DNA of 64,000 nucleotides from Candidatus Actinomarinales bacterium (GCA_004213405.1 SGYR01000001.1:80859-144858), one strand, 5' to 3'; numbered from the stretch's first letter, positions 2,088-60,837 are shown. Program-made: numbers and translations. Notes: generated by a model not told the origin, from the letters alone.

Positions 2088-2978
2088 TTAAAGCGAATTG
2101 ATAAATAAATTATTTTTTGAAAGATCAATGCTTACATATATATAGGAAATCCACAAAAAATCGGCAATTGCTAGGTGCAATATGCTTAAAGGCAGAACTA
2201 TATTGGATAAAACATTTATGACTCCCAGAAATACAGCAATAATTATTAATATTTGTAATGGTTTAACGCCTACATTATATTTTTTTCTAATCCCAGTTGC
2301 ATAAACGTATAAAACTATCGATAGTGTTGAGGAAATAATCGGGTGTAAAATTCTTAATCTGGTCAACACTTCGGATGTTCTGTCAAAATCTGCTAAAAAC
2401 CCTTCAACAAATGAAGTGCTTGGAAATAAGACATCAGCTAAAGCAGTGATTGAGCCAGTTGCTCCACTTAGAAGAAATAAAGAAGAAATTAACAAAAAGT
2501 TTTTGTTGAACATATTTTTTATGTTCTGAAGATCATCTTGGAGTATTTTATATAATATTGCATAACTCCCTAGCAAACCAAAAGTGTTTACTAAATGAAT
2601 TGGAACTGCAATGACTCTTGGGAGTGAACTATTAAGACCTACCCATTCAAAAATGACAATTACTGCTCCGATTAGCGCTTCAAAAATTACGAAAAAAGTA
2701 AGATAATTAGTTACTATTCTTACCAAAGAGTCTTTTTGAAATTTCCTAGTTTTTGCAAAAATTATCAAAGTAACAACTAATAAAACTCCACTTACGGAAC
2801 GATGGGAAAATTCAATTAATTCTGAAGTATCTGATAATGCAGGAATTATCTTTCCTTTACATGTAGGCCAAGTAGCTCCACATCCATCTCCAGACCCGGT
2901 AGCCCTAACAAATGCACCAGCCAAAATTGAAGCTATTGATAATAAAAGACCTGCTTTTGCGTAAGACTCGACTTTCAC
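2088..2978 (-). CDS. ctaA: heme A synthase (COX15/CtaA family)
   Basis: 296 aa polytopic membrane protein with an N-terminal GSGDGCGATWPTC cysteine pair and conserved His residues. Lies near ctaB and ctaCDEFG. Confidence 0.75.
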   Translation of the reverse strand: MKVESYAKAGLLLSIASILAGAFVRATGSGDGCGATWPTCKGKIIPALSDTSELIEFSHRSVSGVLLVVTLIIFAKTRKFQKDSLVRIVTNYLTFFVIFEALIGAVIVIFEWVGLNSSLPRVIAVPIHLVNTFGLLGSYAILYKILQDDLQNIKNMFNKNFLLISSLFLLSGATGSITALADVLFPSTSFVEGFLADFDRTSEVLTRLRILHPIISSTLSIVLYVYATGIRKKYNVGVKPLQILIIIAVFLGVINVLSNIVLPLSILHLAIADFLWISYIYVSIDLSKNNLFINSL

Positions 2979-3577
2979 AGTAAATTATCTAAAAATGTTC
3001 TAAGTGAATCCCAAAATAAGGAGAATGAATTATAAATAACAATACAAAGCACCAGAAGCAAAGCTGTTGTTTTGAGATTTCGAGTGAAATAAAAACCAAT
3101 TTGTTTTTGATCATATATATATGGCTCTTCATCGGAAAACTCAAGGAGGTTAGTAGTTTGTAGGGGTTTTGTAAGATATTCTTCTAAAGTTTCTTCTTTT
3201 ACCTCAGAAACCTCAACTGATTCATAATCAAAATCATTAAGTGTTGATTCTTTTCTTTGGAAGGTATTTCGAAGTTTATCTATTCTAGTTTGTTTAATTT
3301 GCACATCATCATTTTTTATTGAGAAGAGACTTTCTTCAGTTAATAATGAACCTACTTCTTTTAATTGTTCCGTTGAGAACCCATCAAGCGTATGTGTTAT
3401 TTCGGTACCTAACAATCCTTCAAGAGCATTAATAATTTTTTTATCCGTAGGAAAACTCGTTCCAGCTTCCCATTGCTTAACATCTTTTACTTTTACCCCT
3501 GTAAAAGAAGCAATCTGTTTATTACTTAAGCCCCTATCCGCTTTAAGTCTTTTAAATTCTATTTGAAAATTATTCAT
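2975..3577 (-). CDS. XRE-type helix-turn-helix protein with C-terminal membrane anchor
   Basis: I start it at internal ATG 3577..3575 (MNNFQIEFKRLKADRGLSNKQIASFTGVKVKDVKQWEAG...), because the track's longer ORF (to 3715) runs through the tRNA-Sec gene. Acidic linker, then a single TM (TTALLLVLCIVIYNSFSLFW). Its stop overlaps the ctaA start by 4 nt. Confidence 0.6.
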   Translation of the reverse strand: MNNFQIEFKRLKADRGLSNKQIASFTGVKVKDVKQWEAGTSFPTDKKIINALEGLLGTEITHTLDGFSTEQLKEVGSLLTEESLFSIKNDDVQIKQTRIDKLRNTFQRKESTLNDFDYESVEVSEVKEETLEEYLTKPLQTTNLLEFSDEEPYIYDQKQIGFYFTRNLKTTALLLVLCIVIYNSFSLFWDSLRTFLDNLL

Positions 3578-3628
3578 TACTTTAATTCTATTCAATATAA
3601 TTTTTTTTATATAACTAGTCTTAAGTAC

Positions 3629-3720
3629 GGAGGTGAATGAGCGCCTGGTGGGCTCCACAGTCTTCAAAACTGTTGAAAGGTGTAAAAGTCTTTGGCAGGT
3701 TCGATTCCTGTCCACCTCCG
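3629..3720 (+). tRNA. selC: tRNA-Sec (anticodon TCA)
   Basis: GGAGGTG...CACCTCC acceptor. Anticodon arm ACAGT-CTTCAAA-ACTGT, so anticodon TCA. Long variable arm (AAAGGT/GTCTTT stem). T arm GGCAGG-TTCGATT-CCTGTC. Acceptor plus T stems total 13 bp, as in bacterial tRNA-Sec. About 92 nt with no encoded CCA. Confidence 0.85.
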
Positions 3721-3755
3721 CTACTTTATAAGATATACATGTTTAATATAGAAAA

Positions 3756-4085
3756 ATGGCAGAAGAAAAAAGCTTATTAGATGAGGTGCAAGAAGCACCT
3801 GCTGGATTCAAGGTTTCTCCAGGTTGGAGAGTTGGTCACTTAAAAGAAGAGACAATTACTAAGTCAGGGCTTCTTGTACCAGCTGGTAGTGAAAAAACTT
3901 CAGAAGCACTTCCTCTTATTGATGTTGATACAGGACAGCAGTTCTGGGCTGTAGCTAGTGGTGCATGGAAATTTATCTGGCCTCCAACTGGAAAAGTAGT
4001 TTTAGCTGTTAGAGAATCTCAAATTATTGCTGAAGAAGAGCTTTCAAAATCTTCTGAAAATGGCCAATTACCTATAATGAAATAA
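3756..4085 (+). CDS. hypothetical protein, possibly a divergent Cpn10/GroES-like fold
   Basis: 109 aa. The segment KEETITKSGLLVPAGSEKTSEA resembles the GroES mobile-loop region, and the tail VVLAVRESQIIAEE resembles the GroES C-terminus. The similarity is weak and judged by eye only. Confidence 0.35.
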   Translation: MAEEKSLLDEVQEAPAGFKVSPGWRVGHLKEETITKSGLLVPAGSEKTSEALPLIDVDTGQQFWAVASGAWKFIWPPTGKVVLAVRESQIIAEEELSKSSENGQLPIMK

Positions 4086-25695: not shown

Positions 25696-26088
25696 TTGAT
25701 TGATTCATTAAAAAACAAAAATAACCTAATTGCTCTCATAGGAGCAAGTAATGATAAAAATAAATACGGAAATAAGATTTTATTAGACTTAGTATCAAAA
25801 GGTCATAATGTTGTTCCTGTAAACCCCAAAGAAACAATCATCGCTGGTTTAAAGTCATACAACAATGTTTCTGAACTGAGTGAAAACCCATCAATAATTA
25901 ATTTTGTAGTGCCACCCAGTATTGGCTTTGAATTAACTAAAGACCTAGTTGAATCAGGTCATGATAACTTCTGGTATCAGCCTGGTGCAGAGAGTTTAGA
26001 AATTTCTTCGTATTTAGAATCTAATAATAAAAATTATATAGATGACAAATGCATAATGGTTGTCACAAGACTAGCCGATAATTACTAA
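25696..26088 (+). CDS. CoA-binding domain protein (YccU/YneT-like)
   Basis: 130 aa. IALIGASNDKNKYGN...GHNVVPVNPK pattern. TTG start directly after the fadE stop. Confidence 0.7.
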   Translation: MIDSLKNKNNLIALIGASNDKNKYGNKILLDLVSKGHNVVPVNPKETIIAGLKSYNNVSELSENPSIINFVVPPSIGFELTKDLVESGHDNFWYQPGAESLEISSYLESNNKNYIDDKCIMVVTRLADNY

Positions 26089-27110
26089 TCTTCTAGCTCT
26101 TTATTTACGCTATCTAATTCTTCGAATGATTTCTCAAGTTTATTTACTCTAGTAGTTTTTAACGCCTCAAAAGATTTTACAGTTTGATCTAGTCTCTTAG
26201 TTACATCGTCAAAAGATTCAATAAACTTTCTAATTTCCACTTTAATTTTTTCATGAGTGGCCAAAATGTTTTTTGTATCAGTTTGTAAACTGAATAGTTT
26301 CATTGAGTGCCTTATGGTCTCAAGATAAGCCATTAATGTCTGGGGACTTACTAATATAACTTTTTTAGAGAAAGCATACTGAATAACAGGTGTTCTGTTC
26401 GCACCGATTTCTGAAGTTAATAAAAAGTGATATAAGTTTTCAAGTGGTATGTACATTAAAACAAAATCAACAGTACCTTCTTCAGCTGATATGTACCCTT
26501 CTCTTGAAGATGTATCATCAATTTTGGTTTTGATTGATTTATCTAAAAACTCCTTATTTTTATTTCTAATAGATTCAGTTATTTCTTTTCTTGCTAACTC
26601 GTCAAGAGTTTCATCTTCAAGGTCTCTGTTTAATTTGGCTATCTCCATATAGTTGGTTAATGGAAATTTTGAATCCATATTTATTGTTTTATTTTCAGGA
26701 AGATAAAATGTGAAATCAGGAATTGTACCACTCGACATTCTTTTTTGGGTTTGGTAATGGAGTCCCTCTTTATACTCCATAATTTCTAGCAAATCTTCGA
26801 CCTGAAACTCTGCCCATTGCCCTCTGCTTTGGTTATTATTTAATACAGATATTAAATTTCTAGTTTGCTGATCAACTCCAGTTATAGAGGACTTAATTTC
26901 ACCAGTCTTCTCTAAAAAATCTTTTACTGTCTGATCAGACCTGTTGAGTAATTTGTATATTTGGGATTCTTCATTTTCAATTATTTCACTTACAATCCCT
27001 TTAATTAAATACTCATCATCTTTATTGTCTTCTTCAGTTTCTTTTCTTGTTACAAAATAAAGATTGGCAAGTAAGAGGATAACTATTAAACCATAAAATA
27101 TATTTTCCAT
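26085..27110 (-). CDS. rmuC: DNA recombination protein RmuC
   Basis: 341 aa. N-terminal TM helix, coiled coil, then the RmuC core (RGQWAEFQVEDLLE...IPDFTFYLPE...DSKFPL...VLMYIP). Confidence 0.8.
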   Translation of the reverse strand: MENIFYGLIVILLLANLYFVTRKETEEDNKDDEYLIKGIVSEIIENEESQIYKLLNRSDQTVKDFLEKTGEIKSSITGVDQQTRNLISVLNNNQSRGQWAEFQVEDLLEIMEYKEGLHYQTQKRMSSGTIPDFTFYLPENKTINMDSKFPLTNYMEIAKLNRDLEDETLDELARKEITESIRNKNKEFLDKSIKTKIDDTSSREGYISAEEGTVDFVLMYIPLENLYHFLLTSEIGANRTPVIQYAFSKKVILVSPQTLMAYLETIRHSMKLFSLQTDTKNILATHEKIKVEIRKFIESFDDVTKRLDQTVKSFEALKTTRVNKLEKSFEELDSVNKELED

Positions 27111-27162
27111 AATTTAAGAATAGCAATATAGCAAGACAGTTTATGTTGTAAGTATTATTTAG

Positions 27163-28296
27163 TTAAACAGTGTCGAATATTTTTTGAAAACTAAATTTAA
27201 AATTATCTGAAGAATAATTAGATAAAATGAATTCTTTTGCATTTATCCCAACAGAAGTTGCTTCATTATAATTTTGAATCACATGGTTTATTTTTTTTAT
27301 CATGGAATCTAAATTATTACTCTCAAATACATAACCTGTTTGTCCGTCTATGACTATGTCTTGCATTCCAGGGGCGTCTGTAACAAGCACAGGACATGCT
27401 GTTACTTGGGACTCAAATATTACCCTTGCTAGGCCCTCTGATACCGAAGGAAGAATCATTAAGTTATTTTCAGAGTAAAACTTTTTCACTTCATCTCTAT
27501 TTTTATTTCCATGAATAAAAACTCTATCTTCAACATTTTGAGATTTTATTTTTTCTTTTAGACTTTCTAGATAGTTTTGATTGGGTGTTGGGCCTACTAT
27601 ATTCAGTTCAACCTGATCACTAATTAACTCAGGCAAGGCATCGATAATCATATGAGGTTTTTTTCTATCAGTCACACTTCCTATAAAGAGTATTTTAAAT
27701 TTTTCACTACCATCTCTCAAGGGTTCGATGTTGCTAAATATTTCAAAATCTATCCATGCTGGAAATCTTACAACACGCTTCGATGGATTAAAAGACAGTG
27801 CTTGCTCCTCTGTAGAAGAAGAAACTGCTCTCAACATATCAGCACAATTTATAGTATAAGATGCCATCTTGGAAAATAAATTTTTATATAAATTTGGAAA
27901 TGTTAGATTTTTTTCTAACTCCAAAGTATTTATAAAATCTCCATGTGATTCGACGACTATTTTTACATCTTTATACTTCTTTTTGATTTTATAAACACCC
28001 AGAAAACTTGTTACCGGATCTTGAAATGTAACTATTTCAATTTCATATTGGGATATTAATTTTGGTATTTGAAAATAAGATACAAAAAATATTTTCAAAT
28101 AGTTAAAAATTCTTGATTTGTTTTTTTTATTTAAATAAAAAGTTGTATCTGATTCAGTATGTATTTTTTTTTGGCTTGAGAATGCAAGAACTGTAACATT
28201 TGCGACTTCACTTAAATTATCGTACTTTTTTTTTATATTTTCATTTAAAGGTAAGTCATAAAAAGTTGGAGAGAAAAATAGTACATTTTTTTTCAT
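27163..28296 (-). CDS. glycosyltransferase, GT4 family (GT-B fold)
   Basis: 377 aa. C-terminal EGLARVIFE (E-x7-E) motif and LFIGSV...KKPH pattern. Its ATG overlaps the stop of the upstream hydrolase (ATGA). Confidence 0.8.
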   Translation of the reverse strand: MKKNVLFFSPTFYDLPLNENIKKKYDNLSEVANVTVLAFSSQKKIHTESDTTFYLNKKNKSRIFNYLKIFFVSYFQIPKLISQYEIEIVTFQDPVTSFLGVYKIKKKYKDVKIVVESHGDFINTLELEKNLTFPNLYKNLFSKMASYTINCADMLRAVSSSTEEQALSFNPSKRVVRFPAWIDFEIFSNIEPLRDGSEKFKILFIGSVTDRKKPHMIIDALPELISDQVELNIVGPTPNQNYLESLKEKIKSQNVEDRVFIHGNKNRDEVKKFYSENNLMILPSVSEGLARVIFESQVTACPVLVTDAPGMQDIVIDGQTGYVFESNNLDSMIKKINHVIQNYNEATSVGINAKEFILSNYSSDNFKFSFQKIFDTV

Positions 28297-29216
28297 AAAC
28301 TAAAAAATTCTCTAAGTTCTGTTAATAGATCTTCTTCGTGTGTCCATGGAACTGAGTGGCCAGCATCAGGAAAAGTTTTCACTTTTACTTCGTTTAATCT
28401 CTTAACTACATCATTTGAAGTTTCTTCTGGTACAAGTTTATCTCTACCCCCAGTAATTACTAGGGTCTCAGCTTCAATTTCTTGTATCCAAGACCTTGCA
28501 TCATAAGGAACAACAAATCTTCCCCCATCTGAGTAAATGAAGTCATCTTTTGATTTATGCAGATTATTCCATGCCCACTCTGTATATTCATCGTTAATAG
28601 AGTTTGATTTTTTTAAAAATGAAAACTTAGATTTTGGATTGAAATTAGGGAATAATCTTTCTCTTATTCTTACAAAACTAACAAATATTTTAAATGCTAC
28701 TTTATCGCTATACACAGCACCACCAAGCCAGCTAAAAGGTGTAATTAAAACTAATTTATTTACTAATGGCTTATTTTTTTTAGCAATTGACATTGCAACT
28801 GCACTTCCCATTGACCAACCAACAATATTGCAACTTGAAATGCCAAGCTCTTTTAGAATGCTAATAACAACATCGGCATTTTCATCTACGTCCCACCTGT
28901 CCCAACTAGCATCAGACTTTCCATGATTACGCATGTCTATAGCAACAAAAGAGGTTTCATTTTTAATTTTAGGCAATATTTTAAACCAGCTTCCTAGGGA
29001 GTCTGACCCCCAGCTGTGGAGAAATATTATAGGAGTTGTGCCGTCTATGATATTTTCTCTAATAAAGTATTCTTTTTCTCTTATGAATACAGTCCTGCCT
29101 GGAATTTTACTTGGGTGAATTTGTGTAGTTCCTGCAGATTGGCTCTTTTTGGTCTCAAGTAGGCTTTTTGTTACTGCAGTAAAAGCAAAAATTTTAGTTA
29201 GTGTTTTAATCATCAA
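28293..29216 (-). CDS. alpha/beta-fold hydrolase
   Basis: 307 aa. IIFLHSWGSD oxyanion region, GWSMGS nucleophile elbow, and C-terminal DAGHSVPWTH. The start (TTG 29216 or ATG 29213) overlaps the selD stop. Confidence 0.8.
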   Translation of the reverse strand: MMIKTLTKIFAFTAVTKSLLETKKSQSAGTTQIHPSKIPGRTVFIREKEYFIRENIIDGTTPIIFLHSWGSDSLGSWFKILPKIKNETSFVAIDMRNHGKSDASWDRWDVDENADVVISILKELGISSCNIVGWSMGSAVAMSIAKKNKPLVNKLVLITPFSWLGGAVYSDKVAFKIFVSFVRIRERLFPNFNPKSKFSFLKKSNSINDEYTEWAWNNLHKSKDDFIYSDGGRFVVPYDARSWIQEIEAETLVITGGRDKLVPEETSNDVVKRLNEVKVKTFPDAGHSVPWTHEEDLLTELREFFSL

Positions 29217-30241
29217 CTACTAATAATATTTATTTTTTGATTATATCTATCAGTTATATTTCCAATTTCTTCTACAAAAACCCCATATATTTTCTCAATT
29301 TCTATCAAATCTATATCTGTATCAGCAGGTACAGAAATTAATAATCCTCCACTGGTTTGAGCATCTGCTAATAAAAGTGCCTCGTCTTGATTCTCGAATG
29401 AGATAAAGTCTTTTACTGAGTCAAAATTTCTCTGACTTCCTGATGGATATATGCCACTATGAAAATAATTTTTTGCATACTCAATGAGTGGAACTTTATC
29501 GAATATCAAATTTGCTGATAATTTTTCATCAATTAACATCTCACTAAGGTGGCCAAGAAGTCCAAAACCAGTAACGTCTGTAATTGCGTTTGCATTGAGG
29601 TGCTTTGCAACTTCAAGTCCTGCATCATTTAAGGTTGTCATTACATTTGTTACCTGATTTATTGCTTCTTCATCGGCGACCCCTTTTTTTATTGCGGTTG
29701 AAATAATTCCAGAACCGAGAGGCTTGGTTAGAAAAAGTTTATCTCCATTTTTAATATTCGTTTTTGTATAGATTTTTTCATTAACGATACCTGTTACAGC
29801 AAAACCATATTTTGGTTCTTTGTCATCAATACTGTGCCCTCCAACAATATTGCAATTTGCAGATTTCATTACATCTGCACCTCCCTTAATAACATCTGAT
29901 AAAACGTCAAAACCTATGTCTTCTCTTGGCCAACTAACTAACTGTAGAGATGAAATAGGTGCACCTCCCATTGCATAAATATCAGATAATGCATTTGTTG
30001 CGGCAACCCTACCCCAGTCATAAGGGTTATCTAATATAGGAGTAAAAAAATCAACAGTTTGCACAATTTTCATGCTGTTTCCTAGATCAATAACTGCGCC
30101 GTCATCTGGATTTTCTAAACCAACTAAGACTTCAGAATTGTTTGAATTATTTTGTTTTGATTGCTTCAGAACCTGAGCAAGCTCTCCTTGGGAGAGTTTA
30201 CATGCTCAACCTGAGCCATGAGAATACTCTGTGAGTCTCAC
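29213..30241 (-). CDS. selD: selenide, water dikinase (selenophosphate synthetase), Sec-containing form; UGA at 30208..30206 read as selenocysteine
   Basis: The track lists only 29213..30073. The same frame extends upstream through one TGA: (GTG)RLTEYSHGSGUACKLSQGELAQVL...GLENPDDGAVIDLGNS-MKIVQTVDFFTP... The U falls where E. coli SelD has Cys17 (SHGAGCGCK), and Lys20 is conserved. A strong SD (AAAGGGGGG) precedes GTG 30241. Total 342 codons. Confidence 0.9.
30174..30208 (-). promoter_or_regulatory. candidate SECIS hairpin starting at the selD UGA
   Basis: mRNA UGAGCA-UGUAAA-CUCUCC-CAA-GGAGAG-CU-UGCUCA. The outer 6-bp stem includes the UGA, and there is an inner 6-bp stem. I read both complementary arms directly from the sequence. 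Confidence 0.55.
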
Positions 30242-30252
30242 TTTACCCCCCT

Positions 30253-31077
30253 TTAACTTTCTTGCTTTTCCTTAAGTACTTCTTTCGCAAATAAATCTTG
30301 TATAGTGCTCAACAAAGGTGCCTGCTCAAACAACTGATTATCAATCTTTGAGACAAATACACCGTGTTTAGCTGTAGACATTACAAAAACTGTATCAACT
30401 TTATAGAGTTCATCTATTGTCACTCTAGAAACAGATGCTTGAATCTTGCCTTCCTCACCAAGCTTAAGTAAATACTGTCTAGTTATCGAGTCTAAAATAC
30501 CCAACTCTAGATCAGGAACATAAACAACTTCATCCTTAATCCAGCCAACACAAAAAGTTGGGCCTTCTAATACTATGCCCTTATTATTGATGAGCAAGGC
30601 ATCTGTAAAACCATCTCTAACTGCTTCTCTAGTTTGCTTTATGTTATAAGCATAGGAAGTAGATTTTGAACCAACTATATTTTTACTATCAACTTCATAA
30701 TCTCCACCGGCATGCCATGGAGCGGGTTGAGATTGCAATGTAAATTCTTCGGGTAAGTTTAATAATGGTTGATAAAAAGAATAAATTGTAAAATCGTCAT
30801 CTGATTCATTTCTCAAGATTAAAACTCTCACATAGCCACTTTTATGGTTTGATGATATTTTTAAAATATTGTTTTTGACCAAATTAAAATCTACATTGTC
30901 AAATAGTTGTTTTTTGCAAGACTGTTTTAACCTGTCTATATGTTTCTCTAACCCAAAGGGATAGTGGTCATGAATCTTCAAAGCTTCAAAGACCCCGTCT
31001 CCTCTCCATACCGCTAAATTTTCAACAGGCAAAGTAAATTCATCTTTTGTAACTTCCAAATCATTGATCAAATACAA
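30253..31077 (-). CDS. class IV (fold type IV) aminotransferase (branched-chain/D-amino-acid aminotransferase or ADC-lyase like)
   Basis: 274 aa. RGDGVFEALK near the N-terminus and GILDSITRQ are typical of the fold-type IV PLP family. It ends 11 nt before the selD start. Confidence 0.75.
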   Translation of the reverse strand: MYLINDLEVTKDEFTLPVENLAVWRGDGVFEALKIHDHYPFGLEKHIDRLKQSCKKQLFDNVDFNLVKNNILKISSNHKSGYVRVLILRNESDDDFTIYSFYQPLLNLPEEFTLQSQPAPWHAGGDYEVDSKNIVGSKSTSYAYNIKQTREAVRDGFTDALLINNKGIVLEGPTFCVGWIKDEVVYVPDLELGILDSITRQYLLKLGEEGKIQASVSRVTIDELYKVDTVFVMSTAKHGVFVSKIDNQLFEQAPLLSTIQDLFAKEVLKEKQES

Positions 31078-31082
31078 AACGA

Positions 31083-32789
31083 TTATCCTCTTTCTCGAAT
31101 ATAGGTATTTGTAATTGGCATTCTCCTGTCTTTGCCAAATGCCTTTTCTGTTAATTTTACTCCTGGTGCAACTTGTTTTCTCTTATATTCGTTTCTATCG
31201 ACTTTGGACAAAACATCATATACAATATTCTCATCAATTCCCTTAGAAATAATCTTCTCTGAAGAACTATCTTCTTCAATATACATACGTAAAATTTCAT
31301 CAAGAAGTTCGTATTCGGGTAAAGAATCCTTATCAAATTGATTTGGTCTTAATTCTGCACTTGGTTCTTTATCGATTGTATTTTGAGGAATTACGCTTGA
31401 AATTGAATTTCTGAAATTTGCCAAGTTATAAACTTCAGTTTTATATAAATCTTTCAATAATGCAAAACCTCCTGCTAAATCACCATAAAGAGTTGAATAA
31501 CCTACAGCCATTTCAGACTTATTACCCGTAGAAACAACCATAGCTCCAGTTTGGTTGGATAAAGCCATCAAAATATTACCTCTTACGCGTGATTGGATGT
31601 TTTCATCTGTTGTTTGTCCAAGTTCATCATTAACACTTTCTTTTAATGTATTTCTAAAAATATTTACTATTTCTTCAATTTCTATAACTTTAAATTCTAT
31701 ATCAAGATTTTTTGCGAGTAACCTTGCATCGACAAGAGACTCCACTGTGTTGTATTTAGATGGCAACGCTACACCTACAACATTATCGGATCCAAGAGAA
31801 TCAACGGCGATAGTTGCAGTCAAAGCGGAGTCTATTCCTCCAGAGAGTCCTACTAGAACTTTTTCAAAGTTATTTTTACTAACGTAATCGAACAACCCTA
31901 ATTTTAATGCTGAATACAAAGATTCATTTTTGGATAAAAGTTGAGCAGACTGTGGAAGATCTAGCTCAGATACTTTTTGCCTAATCTCCAGTATTGACCC
32001 TTTTGGCTGTTCTTTCACTTCCAAATCTAGATCGAGATAGAATAACTCCTCTTCAAACTGTTGGGCTTGATAGGTTATTTCCCCTTTACCGTCTACAACA
32101 AATGAACCTCCATCAAAAACTAATTCGTCTTGACCACCAACCATGTTTAAGTAAATAATTGGCACGCCTAATTTTTTAGCCTGTTTGACAACGAGCTCTT
32201 TTCTCAAGTCAGTTTTATTTTGATCATAAGGAGAAGCGTTTATGTTAATTATTAAAGATGCACCATTCTCTACTTGTTGTGATGAAGGTCCATCTTCAAT
32301 CCATATATCTTCGCAAATACTGATTCCAATCCCAATATCTTCATACCAAAATACATTTCCTGGATTATTGCCTTTGGCAAAATACCTAGCTTCATCAAAT
32401 ACTGAGTAGTTTGGAAGGAAACACTTATGGTAGATTCCTTTTACATCCCCGTTTTGAATTATTGCTGCCGCATTAGCAATGTCTCTTTTTTGTTTGTCTG
32501 TATGGTTATCGTCTAGGTTTCTGTCAACAAAACCAACAACACCACTTGTTGAGCTAGAGAATTCAGCTAATTCTTCCAAAACAGCAAAGTTTTTTCCAAC
32601 AAAACTCTCTCTTAAAAGTAAATCTTCAGGTGGATATCCTGTAAGTGCTAATTCAGGGAAAATCAGGATATCTGCTTCTTTTTCTTCAGCTGCCTCAAAA
32701 CAATCTAAAATAGTTTGCTTGTTTTTCTGTATAGCCCCTACTGGAAATGACTTTTGGGCACCAGCTATTCTAATTGTTTTTTTATTCAC
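31083..32789 (-). CDS. nadE: glutamine-dependent NAD+ synthetase
   Basis: 568 aa. N-terminal CN-hydrolase (glutaminase) domain (FPELALTGYPPEDL...ICEDIW), followed by a synthetase domain with the LSGGIDSAL P-loop. Confidence 0.9.
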   Translation of the reverse strand: MNKKTIRIAGAQKSFPVGAIQKNKQTILDCFEAAEEKEADILIFPELALTGYPPEDLLLRESFVGKNFAVLEELAEFSSSTSGVVGFVDRNLDDNHTDKQKRDIANAAAIIQNGDVKGIYHKCFLPNYSVFDEARYFAKGNNPGNVFWYEDIGIGISICEDIWIEDGPSSQQVENGASLIININASPYDQNKTDLRKELVVKQAKKLGVPIIYLNMVGGQDELVFDGGSFVVDGKGEITYQAQQFEEELFYLDLDLEVKEQPKGSILEIRQKVSELDLPQSAQLLSKNESLYSALKLGLFDYVSKNNFEKVLVGLSGGIDSALTATIAVDSLGSDNVVGVALPSKYNTVESLVDARLLAKNLDIEFKVIEIEEIVNIFRNTLKESVNDELGQTTDENIQSRVRGNILMALSNQTGAMVVSTGNKSEMAVGYSTLYGDLAGGFALLKDLYKTEVYNLANFRNSISSVIPQNTIDKEPSAELRPNQFDKDSLPEYELLDEILRMYIEEDSSSEKIISKGIDENIVYDVLSKVDRNEYKRKQVAPGVKLTEKAFGKDRRMPITNTYIRERG

Positions 32790-34531: not shown

Positions 34532-34849
34532 ATGACTATAACAAAATTTATTTCCTACTTTATAACTCTTTCTATGGCAGGCGTGATATTTTGGGCACAA
34601 GGAGAGGTCCCAATTTTTGACTCGCCTATTCCTGATTTGCCTTGGGGTGTTGTTTCATTAGTTGATCTTTATTCTGGATTTGTTTTATTTAGTCTTTGGA
34701 TTTTCTACAAAGAAAATATTTTTCCTGCTGTAGTTTGGACATTTTTTGTCATGACTTTAGGAAGCTTCACAATTGCATTATATGTTATTTACAGTATTAA
34801 TAAGTCTGGCGGAAATGTTCAGAAATTTTTTATGGGAGATAACTCCTAA
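34532..34849 (+). CDS. small membrane protein (DUF1475-like)
   Basis: 105 aa, 3-4 TM segments. PWGVVSLVDLYSGFVLFSLWIFYKE resembles DUF1475 by recollection. Confidence 0.45.
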   Translation: MTITKFISYFITLSMAGVIFWAQGEVPIFDSPIPDLPWGVVSLVDLYSGFVLFSLWIFYKENIFPAVVWTFFVMTLGSFTIALYVIYSINKSGGNVQKFFMGDNS

Positions 34850-37005
34850 TCCTTTTTTAGATTATCTAACAATATAAGCGACACATCTCGGACTTTAACA
34901 TTGTCTCCATAGCCCAACTCTTTTACACCATCATCCATCATTATGTAGCAAAAAGGACACGCAACAGCAACTTCATCAGCCCCAGTATCAATAGCTTCCT
35001 GTGAACGCTCAATATTTACTTTTTTGCCTGTAGATTCCTCCATCCACATTCTTCCACCACCAGCACCGCAACAAAAGCTCTGCGTTCCCTGTCTTTTCAT
35101 TTCTCTAATCTCAATACCGCCTATAGACCCTACAATCTCACGTGGTGCAGTATAAATATCATTATGTCTACCAAGATAACATGAATCATGATAGGTGATT
35201 TTGTAAGGCTTATCACTAGTGCCTACTTCAATTCTTCCTGACTGAACTAACTCCGTCAAAAGTTGACTGTGATGAATTACTTGATAGTTTCCTCCAAGTT
35301 GTGGATACTCATTTGCTATTGTATTAAAGCAGTGTGGGCACTGAGTAATAATTTTTTCTACTTTTAGATTATTCATATTCTCAATATTTTGAATAGCTAG
35401 TTGTTGAAAAACAAATTCATTACCCGTTCTTCTCGCAGAGTCTCCTGTACAAACTTCTTTTGGTCCTAGAACAGCAAAAGAAACTCCTGCTCTTTTTAAT
35501 AACGTTGCCACAGCTTTTGTAACGGGTACATTTCTATCATCAAAAGCCCCTGCACAACCGACCCAATACAAATAGTCATACTCTTCATGGTTACTTTCAT
35601 CTATTACAGGAACATCAAAATCTAAATCTCCAGCCCATTTAAGTCTGTCGTTTTGAGAAGCTCCCCATGGATTGGAGGAGTTCTCCATCGCAACATATGC
35701 CTTACCTAACTCTGCAGGAAAATCTGATTCCATTAATGCAAGATGCCTTCTCATATCAAGTATCTTGTCTAAAATTTCAATATTCACAGGGCAAATCTCA
35801 TCACAGGCTTTACAGGAGGTGCAAGCCCAGAGTTCTTCGGAAGTAATTCTTTCAAAAACATTGTCAGAATTTACACGTAAAGGACCTGGTGTTGAAACAG
35901 TAGCAGGTACTGCAGGTTGACCAGATTCAGACATCACTTGCCCTACTTTTAATATAATTTCCCTAGGGTCTAAAGATTTTCCAGTTTGATTCGCTGGACA
36001 TACAGATGTACACCTACCACAAACAGTACATGCATCAAGATCCATTAACTGCTTCCAGGTAAAGTGATCAATAATTTCTGTACCTACATTATCGATATCA
36101 TCTGCTTCTAAAAGATTACCAATAAATTTCATTGCACCTTTAGGTCTTTCCTTTGGTGACATAAACATATTTATTGGTGATGTAAATATGTGCCTAAGCT
36201 TGGACAATGGTATTGCTATTAGAAATACAAAAAAAGAAACAACATGGAGTACCCACGATATCCTATGAAAAAGTTCAGGATTCGAAAGGTTTAAAAATTG
36301 ACCAACAGCATAACCAATAAACGACCATTTTTCATAATCTGGAAAATTTTCTAATGCGATTCTTCCTGCTTCAGTAGTTATTCCTGATAATCCAATAAAA
36401 ATTAATAGAGAAAGAGTTAAATAATCATCGATTGTAGTTTTAGTCTTTATCCTGTACTCGGTGCCAATTAAGCGCCTAGCTAAAGCCCAAAAAAGACCTG
36501 TTAGATAAGCTATAGTTGCCAGTTCTAGTGTGAAAGAATAAACGATATATGTTGTACCTTGTAAAAATTTTAGCGAAGGAGGCATGAGATGATGAATCTC
36601 TAAGGTTACAGTGCCAGCAAACAAACCAAGAAATCCAATGTAAATCAGAGAATGCATAAGACCAGCAGCTTTAAACCTAAGAACGGTTCGCATAGTCAAA
36701 CCATCAAAAAGTTTAAATATCCTTTGAGACAGTTTCACATTTCTTTTTTCTTCCTTACCTCTAGTCCAGTTCTTTACTCGAAGAGAAAATAAGTATCCAG
36801 AAATATAGATCGTTGTTGCACTTAAAACATAAAATATATATTGGAGGACCTTAGGAATATTCTCAAATACTCTTCTTCCTCCAACTATTTCTCCTTCGGG
36901 AAATATATAGCTTGCTGCCCATAAAAATAGTGTGCCTACTGCTGCACCGGCAGAGAATAGTAATACATAATCATTAGCTTTATATTTATTTAAAAACTTA
37001 TTCAT
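34846..37005 (-). CDS. membrane-anchored (Fe-S)-binding oxidoreductase (NarI/DsrM-like TM domain + 2x[4Fe-4S] + two CCG domains; HdrD/GlpC-like)
   Basis: 719 aa. About 6 N-terminal TM helices. CTVCGRCTSVCP and CTSCKACDEICP ferredoxin motifs. Two Cys-rich CCG-type repeats (WVGCAG..., CCGAGGG). Confidence 0.8.
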   Translation of the reverse strand: MNKFLNKYKANDYVLLFSAGAAVGTLFLWAASYIFPEGEIVGGRRVFENIPKVLQYIFYVLSATTIYISGYLFSLRVKNWTRGKEEKRNVKLSQRIFKLFDGLTMRTVLRFKAAGLMHSLIYIGFLGLFAGTVTLEIHHLMPPSLKFLQGTTYIVYSFTLELATIAYLTGLFWALARRLIGTEYRIKTKTTIDDYLTLSLLIFIGLSGITTEAGRIALENFPDYEKWSFIGYAVGQFLNLSNPELFHRISWVLHVVSFFVFLIAIPLSKLRHIFTSPINMFMSPKERPKGAMKFIGNLLEADDIDNVGTEIIDHFTWKQLMDLDACTVCGRCTSVCPANQTGKSLDPREIILKVGQVMSESGQPAVPATVSTPGPLRVNSDNVFERITSEELWACTSCKACDEICPVNIEILDKILDMRRHLALMESDFPAELGKAYVAMENSSNPWGASQNDRLKWAGDLDFDVPVIDESNHEEYDYLYWVGCAGAFDDRNVPVTKAVATLLKRAGVSFAVLGPKEVCTGDSARRTGNEFVFQQLAIQNIENMNNLKVEKIITQCPHCFNTIANEYPQLGGNYQVIHHSQLLTELVQSGRIEVGTSDKPYKITYHDSCYLGRHNDIYTAPREIVGSIGGIEIREMKRQGTQSFCCGAGGGRMWMEESTGKKVNIERSQEAIDTGADEVAVACPFCYIMMDDGVKELGYGDNVKVRDVSLILLDNLKKD

Positions 37006-59869: not shown

Positions 59870-60604
59870 CTAATTTATGTTTCTCAAAATAACATACAGC
59901 CCAGAAATAATGGAAAAATAAGTTACTGACTGGGCAATGAAACTGTCTGAGACTTTTGAGAAAAGCGAGCTAGAAACTCTAATGCCTACCAAAACAACTG
60001 GAAGAAATAACATAAATAAAAGTAGGTGGTCAATATAAAGATTGCCACTTAGAATTAAAAGAGACAATGTAATCAAAATGCCTATGCTAAATACACTATT
60101 GAGAGAAGGTCTAAATTCCTGAGATTTAGTGTTCCTATAAAGCAAAGCTACAGGAGGACCACCAATGGCTGCAATCATCCCAAAAATACCTGAAAAAGTA
60201 CCTGCAAAAAAGGAATTCAAAGTATTTCTGTTAATTTCCCACCCAAAAAAAGAGCCTGCACCTGCTATAAAAACAATAAGTCCAACAGAGATTGATAAAT
60301 ATTTTTCGGATAAGTTTAATAATAATAAGAGTCCAATTGGTCCTCCTATTAATCGGCCTAAAATAAGTGGCTTGACTTTAGATAAATCAACTTCGTCTTT
60401 TTCTCGGTAAAAAACTCTTAAAGCAAGTGGCAAACCAAGTAACGCGAGCAGTTGAGGCACAAGACTAGGCTCAATTTGAACAATTATTGGTGAAGCAACA
60501 ACAGCAAATCCAAAACCCAAAACGCCTTGAACGGCAGAGCCAATAAAAAGTAATATTGCAATAAAAATTACTTCAAATAGCGTTAAGTCAAACGGTAGAT
60601 TCAA
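59870..60604 (-). CDS. TauE/SafE-family (DUF81) anion permease
   Basis: 244 aa. Typical LLFIGSAVQGVLGFGFAVVASPI N-terminus and an internal duplication. Its TTG start overlaps the stop of the selenoprotein gene (TTGA). Confidence 0.8.
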   Translation of the reverse strand: MNLPFDLTLFEVIFIAILLFIGSAVQGVLGFGFAVVASPIIVQIEPSLVPQLLALLGLPLALRVFYREKDEVDLSKVKPLILGRLIGGPIGLLLLLNLSEKYLSISVGLIVFIAGAGSFFGWEINRNTLNSFFAGTFSGIFGMIAAIGGPPVALLYRNTKSQEFRPSLNSVFSIGILITLSLLILSGNLYIDHLLLFMLFLPVVLVGIRVSSSLFSKVSDSFIAQSVTYFSIISGLYVILRNIN

Positions 60605-60837
60605 CCAAGATCTTCTTCAATTAATTTAAGAATTTCTCCATCTTCTGAGTGTCTTCCAAGTTCTTTTTTTGAAAATAATAATTTTTCATTTAAATGAAAT
60701 TCAAATACTCCACCACCGCTTGGAATTAGTTGAATGTTCGTAACTTTGTTACCGTAAACTTCTAAGATATCTTCAATCGTGCCAACTGCACGAGGTGTGT
60801 AGTTTCAAACTACACAAAATTCAAGTTTGATTTCCAT
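60601..60837 (-). CDS. SelW-like / Rdx-family selenoprotein (CxxU redox motif); UGA at 60807..60805 read as selenocysteine
   Basis: Absent from the ORF track because of the in-frame TGA. My translation is MEIKLEFCVVUNYTPRAVGTIEDILEVYGNKVTNIQLIPSGGGVFEFHLNEKLLFSKKELGRHSEDGEILKLIEEDLG*. It fits the Rdx pattern (IEYC..U....RA...L......V.LIP..GG.FEV...G.L..SK...GR.PE) with U in the CxxU position. The 237-nt span is exactly in frame. Confidence 0.85.
60778..60816 (-). promoter_or_regulatory. candidate SECIS structures at the SelW-like UGA
   Basis: Two structures. (1) A perfect 9-bp palindrome UGUGUAGUU-UGA-AACUACACA with the UGA as its loop (60796..60816). (2) A hairpin U-CGUGC-AGUUG-GCACG-A that begins after an 11-nt spacer downstream of the UGA (60778..60792). 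Confidence 0.5.

Follow-up and report, generated by a model that had tools for sequence, protein, structure and literature searches.

A selD gene of Candidatus Actinomarina with an in-frame UGA predicted to encode selenocysteine, and two hairpins that follow it

We analysed selD, the gene for selenophosphate synthetase, in a 64,000-nucleotide stretch of DNA from Candidatus Actinomarinales bacterium (GCA_004213405.1, SGYR01000001.1:80859-144858; hereafter the window). The gene carries an in-frame UGA at the codon that corresponds to the catalytic Cys of the Escherichia coli enzyme. This UGA is very probably read as selenocysteine (Sec), which would make the selD product itself a selenoprotein. 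That reading is drawn from the sequence and follows from a tRNA-Sec gene in the same window, the retention of TGA in 79 of 80 related loci, a conserved start codon and Shine-Dalgarno site, RNA structure downstream of the TGA, and the use of TGA as an ordinary stop elsewhere in the window. Sec-containing SelD has been described before, in general as well as in the genus Actinomarina; the finding thus confirms a correct annotation and is not a discovery. Two hairpins follow the UGA, and they are defined below as candidates for the selenocysteine insertion sequence (SECIS).

A full-length SelD with one internal UGA

Read from 30241 to 29213, the coding sequence spans 342 codons and is interrupted by one stop, in the context VRLTEYSHGSG*ACK; with the residues from that stop onward, the N-terminus reads VRLTEYSHGSG*ACKLSQGELAQVL. 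The frame opens with GTG (30241..30239), and in front of it is a Shine-Dalgarno-like AAAGGGGGG, which has bases in common with the TAA that ends the pabC-like gene before it. At the other end of selD, its TGA stop and the start of the following gene, for an alpha/beta hydrolase, overlap. The mechanical open reading frame (ORF) is shorter (29213..30073, 286 aa), its ATG being Met57 of the long form. An earlier note, written from the sequence alone, had described a GTG start with a strong Shine-Dalgarno site and 56 codons upstream of the caller's Met57 interrupted by one TGA; all of these are seen in the sequence and its translation.

The 342-aa protein was searched against profiles with U read as C. 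It matched TIGR00476, the SelD equivalog, end to end, scoring 381.5 bits (cut-off 125) and spanning positions 1-309 of the 311 in the profile, and NF002098 at 359.4 bits (cut-off 299). Among solved structures the best match was E. coli SelD (PDB 3u0o, E = 7e-80), whose residues 6-335 align with residues 1-330 of the window protein. This alignment sets U12 on Cys17, C14 on Cys19 and K15 on Lys20, with SHGSG-U-ACK facing SHGAG-C-GCK, and the motifs DDGAV, TVDFF, SDIYAMGG and TDVTGFGLLGH are all kept. Both domains of a PurM-like AIR synthase, the N-terminal (PF00586) and the C-terminal (PF02769), are precomputed for the public entry P0001 and for all other listed matches; the domain assignment was read from P0001, which is 96% identical over its full length. 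On this homology, the predicted product is a selenophosphate synthetase (selenide, water dikinase) over its full 342 aa. The alignment bears out the placement of the UGA at the catalytic Cys that the earlier note had proposed, with Sec in place of Cys17 and Lys20 retained. The TIGR00476 match also covers the 56 upstream codons, whose homology to SelD the note had left to be checked. Although the two proteins are alike over 330 residues and have all of these motifs in common, E. coli SelD has Cys at position 17, and hence can be made without a UGA and without the Sec machinery.

The UGA is retained across phyla

A scan of species-representative genomes yielded 80 related loci from several phyla: 56 from Actinomarinales (L001-L055 and L074) and 24 from more distant organisms. 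The nearest loci, at 97% identity, belong to Candidatus Actinomarina single-cell genomes and metagenome-assembled genomes (MAGs); by this identity, the window is from that genus. The N-terminal region is kept as protein in all 80 loci, and TGA occupies the catalytic codon in 79 of them, comprising every Actinomarinales locus and 23 of the 24 distant ones. The start codon lies at a conserved position, although its identity varies: among the Actinomarinales loci we counted 24 ATG (43%), 16 GTG and 16 TTG, and AGGAGG-type sites stand at the same distance before the ATG, GTG or TTG in homologous loci. Relatives do not begin at the internal Met, and they carry a UGA or Cys codon in this region; the opposite would have spoken against a selenoprotein.

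The single exception is L062, a Binatia MAG (3001-4026), which has TGC at the catalytic codon. It keeps the GGGAUCUC-GGC-GAGAUUCU hairpin of its Sec-containing relatives (L069, L078), 27 nt downstream. By its sequence, L062 seems to have exchanged Sec for Cys recently while keeping the remnant of a SECIS, a situation that has been described before (PMC1794560). Separately, Actinomarina-type selD genes with their neighbours (59-96% identity) occur in three MAGs labelled Melainabacteria, Methanobacteriota and Methanosarcinales (L024, L042 and L045); these labels probably reflect binning contamination.

Decoding of the UGA

The window contains selC, a tRNA-Sec gene with a TCA anticodon (Table 1). 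Stops in the 52 tabulated genes of the window comprise 31 TAA, 12 TAG and 9 TGA; the same genes hold 263 TGG codons for Trp, and in-frame TGA occurs in just two of them. The nine TGA stops, the TGG count and the rarity of in-frame TGA together exclude that TGA has been reassigned genome-wide. From the established bacterial Sec pathway, the selC product, charged as Sec-tRNA(Sec), would decode the UGA of selD, and SelB, attached to a stem-loop that closely follows that codon within the coding sequence, would deliver it. The earlier note's claim that selD encodes a selenoprotein is supported by the TIGR00476 match, by the conservation of the TGA and its place at the catalytic position, by the tRNA-Sec gene and by the ordinary use of TGA as a stop elsewhere in the window.

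Two other accounts of the TGA were weighed. It could be a true stop, in which case selD would be a pseudogene, or a real SelD would begin at Met57 as gene callers annotate it. The mechanical ORF has just that form, and public protein sets hold short versions of 290-303 aa; however, a protein starting at Met57 would be without the Sec/Cys-Lys loop and the DDGAV motif, 80 loci from several phyla keep the upstream codons as protein, together with the start and the Shine-Dalgarno site, a tRNA-Sec is present, and conserved RNA structure follows the TGA. We regard a true stop as very improbable. Even less credible, to the point of being hardly worth entertaining, is the idea that TGA has changed its meaning throughout the genome and now encodes, say, Trp (code 4), as many metagenome gene callers have translated selD (GSGWACK). 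Entries such as P0001, P0002, P0004 and P0024, among others, do read W and cover the query in full. Yet these same entries run on through real TGA stops (...IISSWWLKH), which marks them as calling artefacts; the codon counts given above argue against reassignment; and Trp at the catalytic Cys/Sec site would presumably be non-functional.

The public record of this gene is affected by both kinds of error: entries are either cut to 290-303 aa or translated at full length under code 4. Trp stands at the Sec position in P0001, P0002, P0004, P0011, P0024, P0038 and P0064, all of which run through two TGA stops, and no correctly translated selD was present among the nine public sequences retrieved.

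The gene selC stands alone, with neither selA nor selB adjoining it; downstream lie a 109-aa unannotated ORF and a gene for an HflX-type GTPase. The latter, a 439-aa ORF, was examined in the search for selA and selB and is of the HflX type; genes for 6-phosphogluconate dehydrogenase and an M1 peptidase come after it. A mechanical ORF of 246 aa (2975..3715), on the strand opposite to selC, overlaps the tRNA-Sec gene, and because of this overlap its true start probably lies internally.

Two hairpins downstream of the UGA

The mRNA downstream of the UGA can form two hairpins, here called A and B. Hairpin A is the upper tier (CUCUCC-CAA-GGAGAG) of a two-tier structure, UGAGCA...CUCUCC-CAA-GGAGAG..UGCUCA, whose lower tier includes the UGA itself. 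The two-tier form is the minimum-energy fold of the region (-20 kcal/mol; z = -2.87 against dinucleotide shuffles). We also compared it with a synonymous-recoding null, in which the peptide was fixed and codons were resampled by the codon usage of the window. Over 5000 such recodings the energy was -9.95 +/- 2.76 kcal/mol, and 0.14% reached -20 (p = 0.0014). The stem employs codons that are rare in the window: CTC and CTG make up 6% and 4% of Leu codons, and TCC makes up 5% of those for Ser. The upper tier by itself has an energy of -8.0 kcal/mol (p = 0.013 against synonymous recoding), and in 63% of 54 distinct loci a hairpin at this position is more stable than synonymous recodings (p <= 0.05).

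Across clades, the details of this structure are less constant. The registers of hairpin A shift by 2-4 nt between clades, and the loop sequences (CAA, ACAAAAA, ACCAA, CUA, GCCCUGA and others) are unrelated, with no G at either of their first two positions. Scored in a fixed register, the two-tier hairpin gave a covariation of 0.088, no better than the 0.077 of shuffled alignments; per-sequence synonymous-recoding tests were for this reason used instead. Within Actinomarinales the lower tier is 91% paired, but we found no compensatory change there: each departure breaks a pair. In GC-richer relatives the lower tier is disrupted. Thus, the two-tier hairpin that the earlier note had drawn, with the UGA as its first element, stands as the minimum-energy fold, whereas its lower tier gains no support from covariation, its upper tier occurs in a shifting register and its loop falls outside the SECIS consensus.

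Hairpin B (UGCUCAG-GUU-CUG(A)AGCA) lies a little further downstream and has the UGCUCA segment in common with the two-tier structure. Its energy in the window is -5.5 kcal/mol, which none of 300 synonymous recodings equalled, and it is significant against synonymous recoding in 89% of the 54 loci. Its covariation over all clades was 0.310, against 0.137 +/- 0.017 for shuffles (0 of 500 as high) and at most 0.181 for slid controls. In this wider set, pair 42-52 is seen as UA, GC, CG, AU and UG, and pair 45-49 as GC, AU and GU. Hairpin B is 98.3% paired within Actinomarinales, where pair 42-52 is UA in 23 sequences and AU in two. At pair 45-49, 12 sequences have GC and 12 have AU; the forms CAG...CUG and CAA...UUG, with 12 sequences each, are related by synonymous changes that occur in pairs. 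Both 42-52 and 45-49 thus change in a compensatory way. In the sequences with A in place of U at column 42, the partner in hairpin B has gone from A to U, and the lower tier loses its 12-42 pair. G-U, nearly invariant, opens the loop of hairpin B. In the loci from Binatia and Margulisiibacteriota, the corresponding element is a GGAUCUC-GGU-GAGAUCC hairpin 27 nt after the UGA, whose triloop also opens with G.

These features can be compared with the bacterial SECIS consensus, which calls for a loop of 3-9 nt with a G among its first two bases, most often with G or U after it, and, in the bSECISearch model, a stem of at least 4 bp, a distance of 16-37 nt from UGA to loop and a minimum free energy of -7.5 kcal/mol or lower (PMC13188914). 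Hairpin B fits in loop size, in its G-U, in its stem and in spacing (33 nt). Hairpin A meets the energy limit but fails the rules on loop G and spacing (15 nt). The arrangement differs further from the consensus in having this separate conserved hairpin between the UGA and hairpin B. Because hairpin B fits the consensus in all but energy, and covaries, we consider it the more likely candidate for SelB binding.

A number of observations weigh against this assignment, or against the Sec reading more broadly. The energy of hairpin B falls short of the -7.5 kcal/mol limit; its spacing is at the far end of the allowed range; and in free mRNA the energy favours the two-tier fold over it, hairpins A and B together amounting to -15 kcal/mol. 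The loop's G-U doubles as the start of a conserved Val codon, of which it forms the first two bases, and loop conservation alone therefore cannot separate a constraint on the RNA from one on the protein. RNAalifold returned no consensus structure for a mixed-phylum alignment of 45 sequences, a null result that we attribute to the shift of hairpin registers between clades. An Rfam scan of the window at gathering thresholds found tRNA-Sec only and no SECIS family. Lastly, selA and selB were absent from the window ORFs screened against Pfam and NCBIfam; their presence in Actinomarina rests on a preprint discussed below.

The main alternative leaves the selenoprotein as it is and exchanges the hairpins: SelB would bind the apical hairpin A, with the UGA in the lower stem as in E. 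coli fdhF, and hairpin B would be incidental or auxiliary. The minimum-energy status of the two-tier form and the frequency of a hairpin at the A position speak for this arrangement, as does the alternation of pair 25-33 between UA and GC. The upper stem starts 9 nt after the UGA, near the spacing of about 11 nt in the fdhF SECIS. In opposition to these points, the loop of hairpin A is unconserved and without the early G, and it lies just outside the 16-37 nt range; the register shifts, with the fixed-register covariation at the level of shuffles; and the lower tier shows no compensation, losing its 12-42 pair exactly where hairpin B compensates. We therefore regard SelB binding at hairpin A as possible, although it is the less probable arrangement.

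With hairpin B as the preferred candidate, the overlap of the two structures deserves comment. Both hairpin B and the lower tier use UGCUCA (30179..30174), so they exclude each other. In free mRNA, the two-tier hairpin would be the most stable form, with the UGA itself paired. A ribosome with the UGA in its A site would have melted the lower tier and freed UGCUCA, which could then find a new partner in the near-repeat UGAAGCA further downstream and so give hairpin B; the upper tier, located at the mRNA entrance, might shorten the path to hairpin B. In its fullest form, this proposal has UGCUCA acting as a ribosome-driven switch that hides the UGA and builds the SECIS only at decoding, in a lineage where all sampled Actinomarinales would have a Sec-only SelD and no Cys back-up. 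We put this combined proposal forward as a speculation that is, on balance, rather unlikely to be right in full.

Comparison with known Sec-containing SelD proteins

Haemophilus influenzae and Aquifex aeolicus are among the organisms with a Sec-containing SelD. The Actinomarina protein is like the known examples in family, in having Sec at the position of E. coli Cys17 within a Gly-rich loop with Lys three residues on, in the in-frame stem-loop after the UGA and in its dependence on its own product. Nothing essential is different; the particulars are an AT-rich (~34% GC) marine actinobacterium with a genome of ~1.1 Mb, a GTG start and two competing hairpins. Sec-containing SelD proteins have been surveyed as a family by Zhang et al. 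in 2006 (PMC1794560) and in a 2026 review (PMC13188914), and SelD ranks as the second most widespread prokaryotic selenoprotein family (PMC13188914; PMC1794560). The point made in the earlier note, that a Sec-dependent SelD causes selenophosphate synthesis to rely on its own product, is logically right and has already been discussed, together with the idea that the Sec trait is perhaps kept for a SelD that "supports itself" (PMC1794560). SelD would make the selenium donor for its own synthesis, giving a self-sustaining loop that is presumably passed on through inherited protein.

For this genus, the preprint "Actinomarina, resolved" (bioRxiv, April 2026, 10.64898/2026.04.03.716425) reports selA, selB, selC and selD in all 84 complete genomes, with selB divergent and below the profile threshold, and describes selD itself as a selenoprotein. 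No YbbB was detected in those genomes, and Rfam models gave no SECIS (10.64898/2026.04.03.716425). The selD of the preprint is from the same genus and is the same gene as ours, with a predicted protein of 342-346 aa that begins MRLT. According to the preprint, roughly half of the genomes have the Sec form (the "MRLT*" family), and the rest have "presumably" a Cys variant (10.64898/2026.04.03.716425). In contrast, all 56 of our Actinomarinales loci have TGA, while only 24 of them start with ATG; two conserved hairpins are also defined here. Given those two counts, the Cys variant is probably an artefact of ATG-only (MRLT) detection, which would miss GTG and TTG starts; this deduction comes from our own loci.

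If the Cys variant is indeed an artefact, the Sec form would be universal in the order. With database entries cut short or mistranslated with Trp, automated surveys undercount or misread selD. The two-hairpin arrangement provides a defined candidate for a bacterial SECIS where Rfam models find nothing. Were SelD to exist only in the Sec form, these abundant surface-ocean bacteria would be strictly dependent on selenium, with a loop unable to restart once broken; a strict need for selenium through a self-dependent SelD is a testable hint for cultivating an uncultured and very abundant bacterium.

Table 1. Coordinates of selD, its RNA features and other genes discussed (positions are those of the window).
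Feature	Position	Strand	Remarks
selD coding sequence	29213..30241	minus	342 codons plus stop, one Sec codon; from sequence, translation, TIGR00476 and 3u0o alignment
Shine-Dalgarno-like AAAGGGGGG	30254..30246	minus	4 nt upstream of the selD GTG; from sequence
In-frame TGA, putative Sec codon	30208..30206	minus	residue 12; equivalent of E. coli SelD Cys17
Two-tier hairpin	30208..30174	minus	lower tier UGAGCA (30208..30203, includes UGA) pairs with UGCUCA (30179..30174)
Hairpin A, upper tier	30196..30182	minus	CUCUCC-CAA-GGAGAG; stem 9 nt and loop 15 nt after UGA
Hairpin B	30179..30162	minus	UGCUCAG-GUU-CUG(A)AGCA; 7-bp stem, one bulged A; GUU triloop 30172..30170, 33 nt after UGA
selC, tRNA-Sec	3629..3721	plus	anticodon TCA; ARAGORN; Rfam RF01852, 75.4 bits (gathering score 47)
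rmuC	26085..27110	minus	selD neighbour run
GT4 glycosyltransferase	27163..28296	minus	selD neighbour run
Alpha/beta hydrolase	28293..29216	minus	start overlaps selD stop
pabC-like class IV aminotransferase	30253..31077	minus	directly upstream of selD
nadE	31083..32789	minus	selD neighbour run
Rdx/SelW-like gene	60837..60601	minus	78 aa, MEIKLEFCVV-U-NYTPRAVG...; TGA 60807..60805 in a CVVU (CxxU) motif; from TGA read-through scan
Hairpin after Rdx-gene UGA	60793..60777	minus	UCGUGC-AGUUG-GCACGA; loop 17 nt after UGA, contains G-U

Gene neighbourhood of selD

The selD gene belongs to a series of closely spaced genes, all with the same orientation, from rmuC to nadE (26085..32789, minus). The order nadE, pabC-like, selD, alpha/beta hydrolase, GT4 glycosyltransferase, rmuC is kept in all Actinomarinales loci that are long enough, and no recognised selenium-pathway gene is found among the neighbours of selD. 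The GT4 gene was considered as SenB of selenoneine synthesis and rejected: it scored 47.9 bits against TIGR04348, whose cut-off is 300, and matched only the generic GT4 C-terminal half. Neither SenA nor SenC was seen near it.

A second predicted selenoprotein gene

Scanning the window elsewhere for larger ORFs interrupted by TGA gave spurious overlaps only; a finer scan revealed an Rdx/SelW-like gene that ORF callers had missed. A 719-aa protein (34846..37005, minus) with two CCG cysteine-rich domains of the HdrD/GlpC-like kind has no in-frame TGA; this CCG family has selenoprotein members in other bacteria. The Rdx/SelW-like protein matches PF10262 (Rdx; SelW/SelT/SelH-like) at 58.7 bits (cut-off 22.6) over profile positions 2-73 of 74, and a hairpin with G-U in its loop follows its UGA (Table 1). 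The TTG that opens a gene for a TauE/SafE-family membrane protein (59870..60604) overlaps the TGA stop of the Rdx/SelW-like gene; the preprint lists this membrane protein family under K07090 (10.64898/2026.04.03.716425). According to the same preprint, the most abundant selenoprotein family of Actinomarina is an uncharacterized one of 78 aa (10.64898/2026.04.03.716425). As that length equals the length of the Rdx protein in the window, the preprint's family would be SelW-like.

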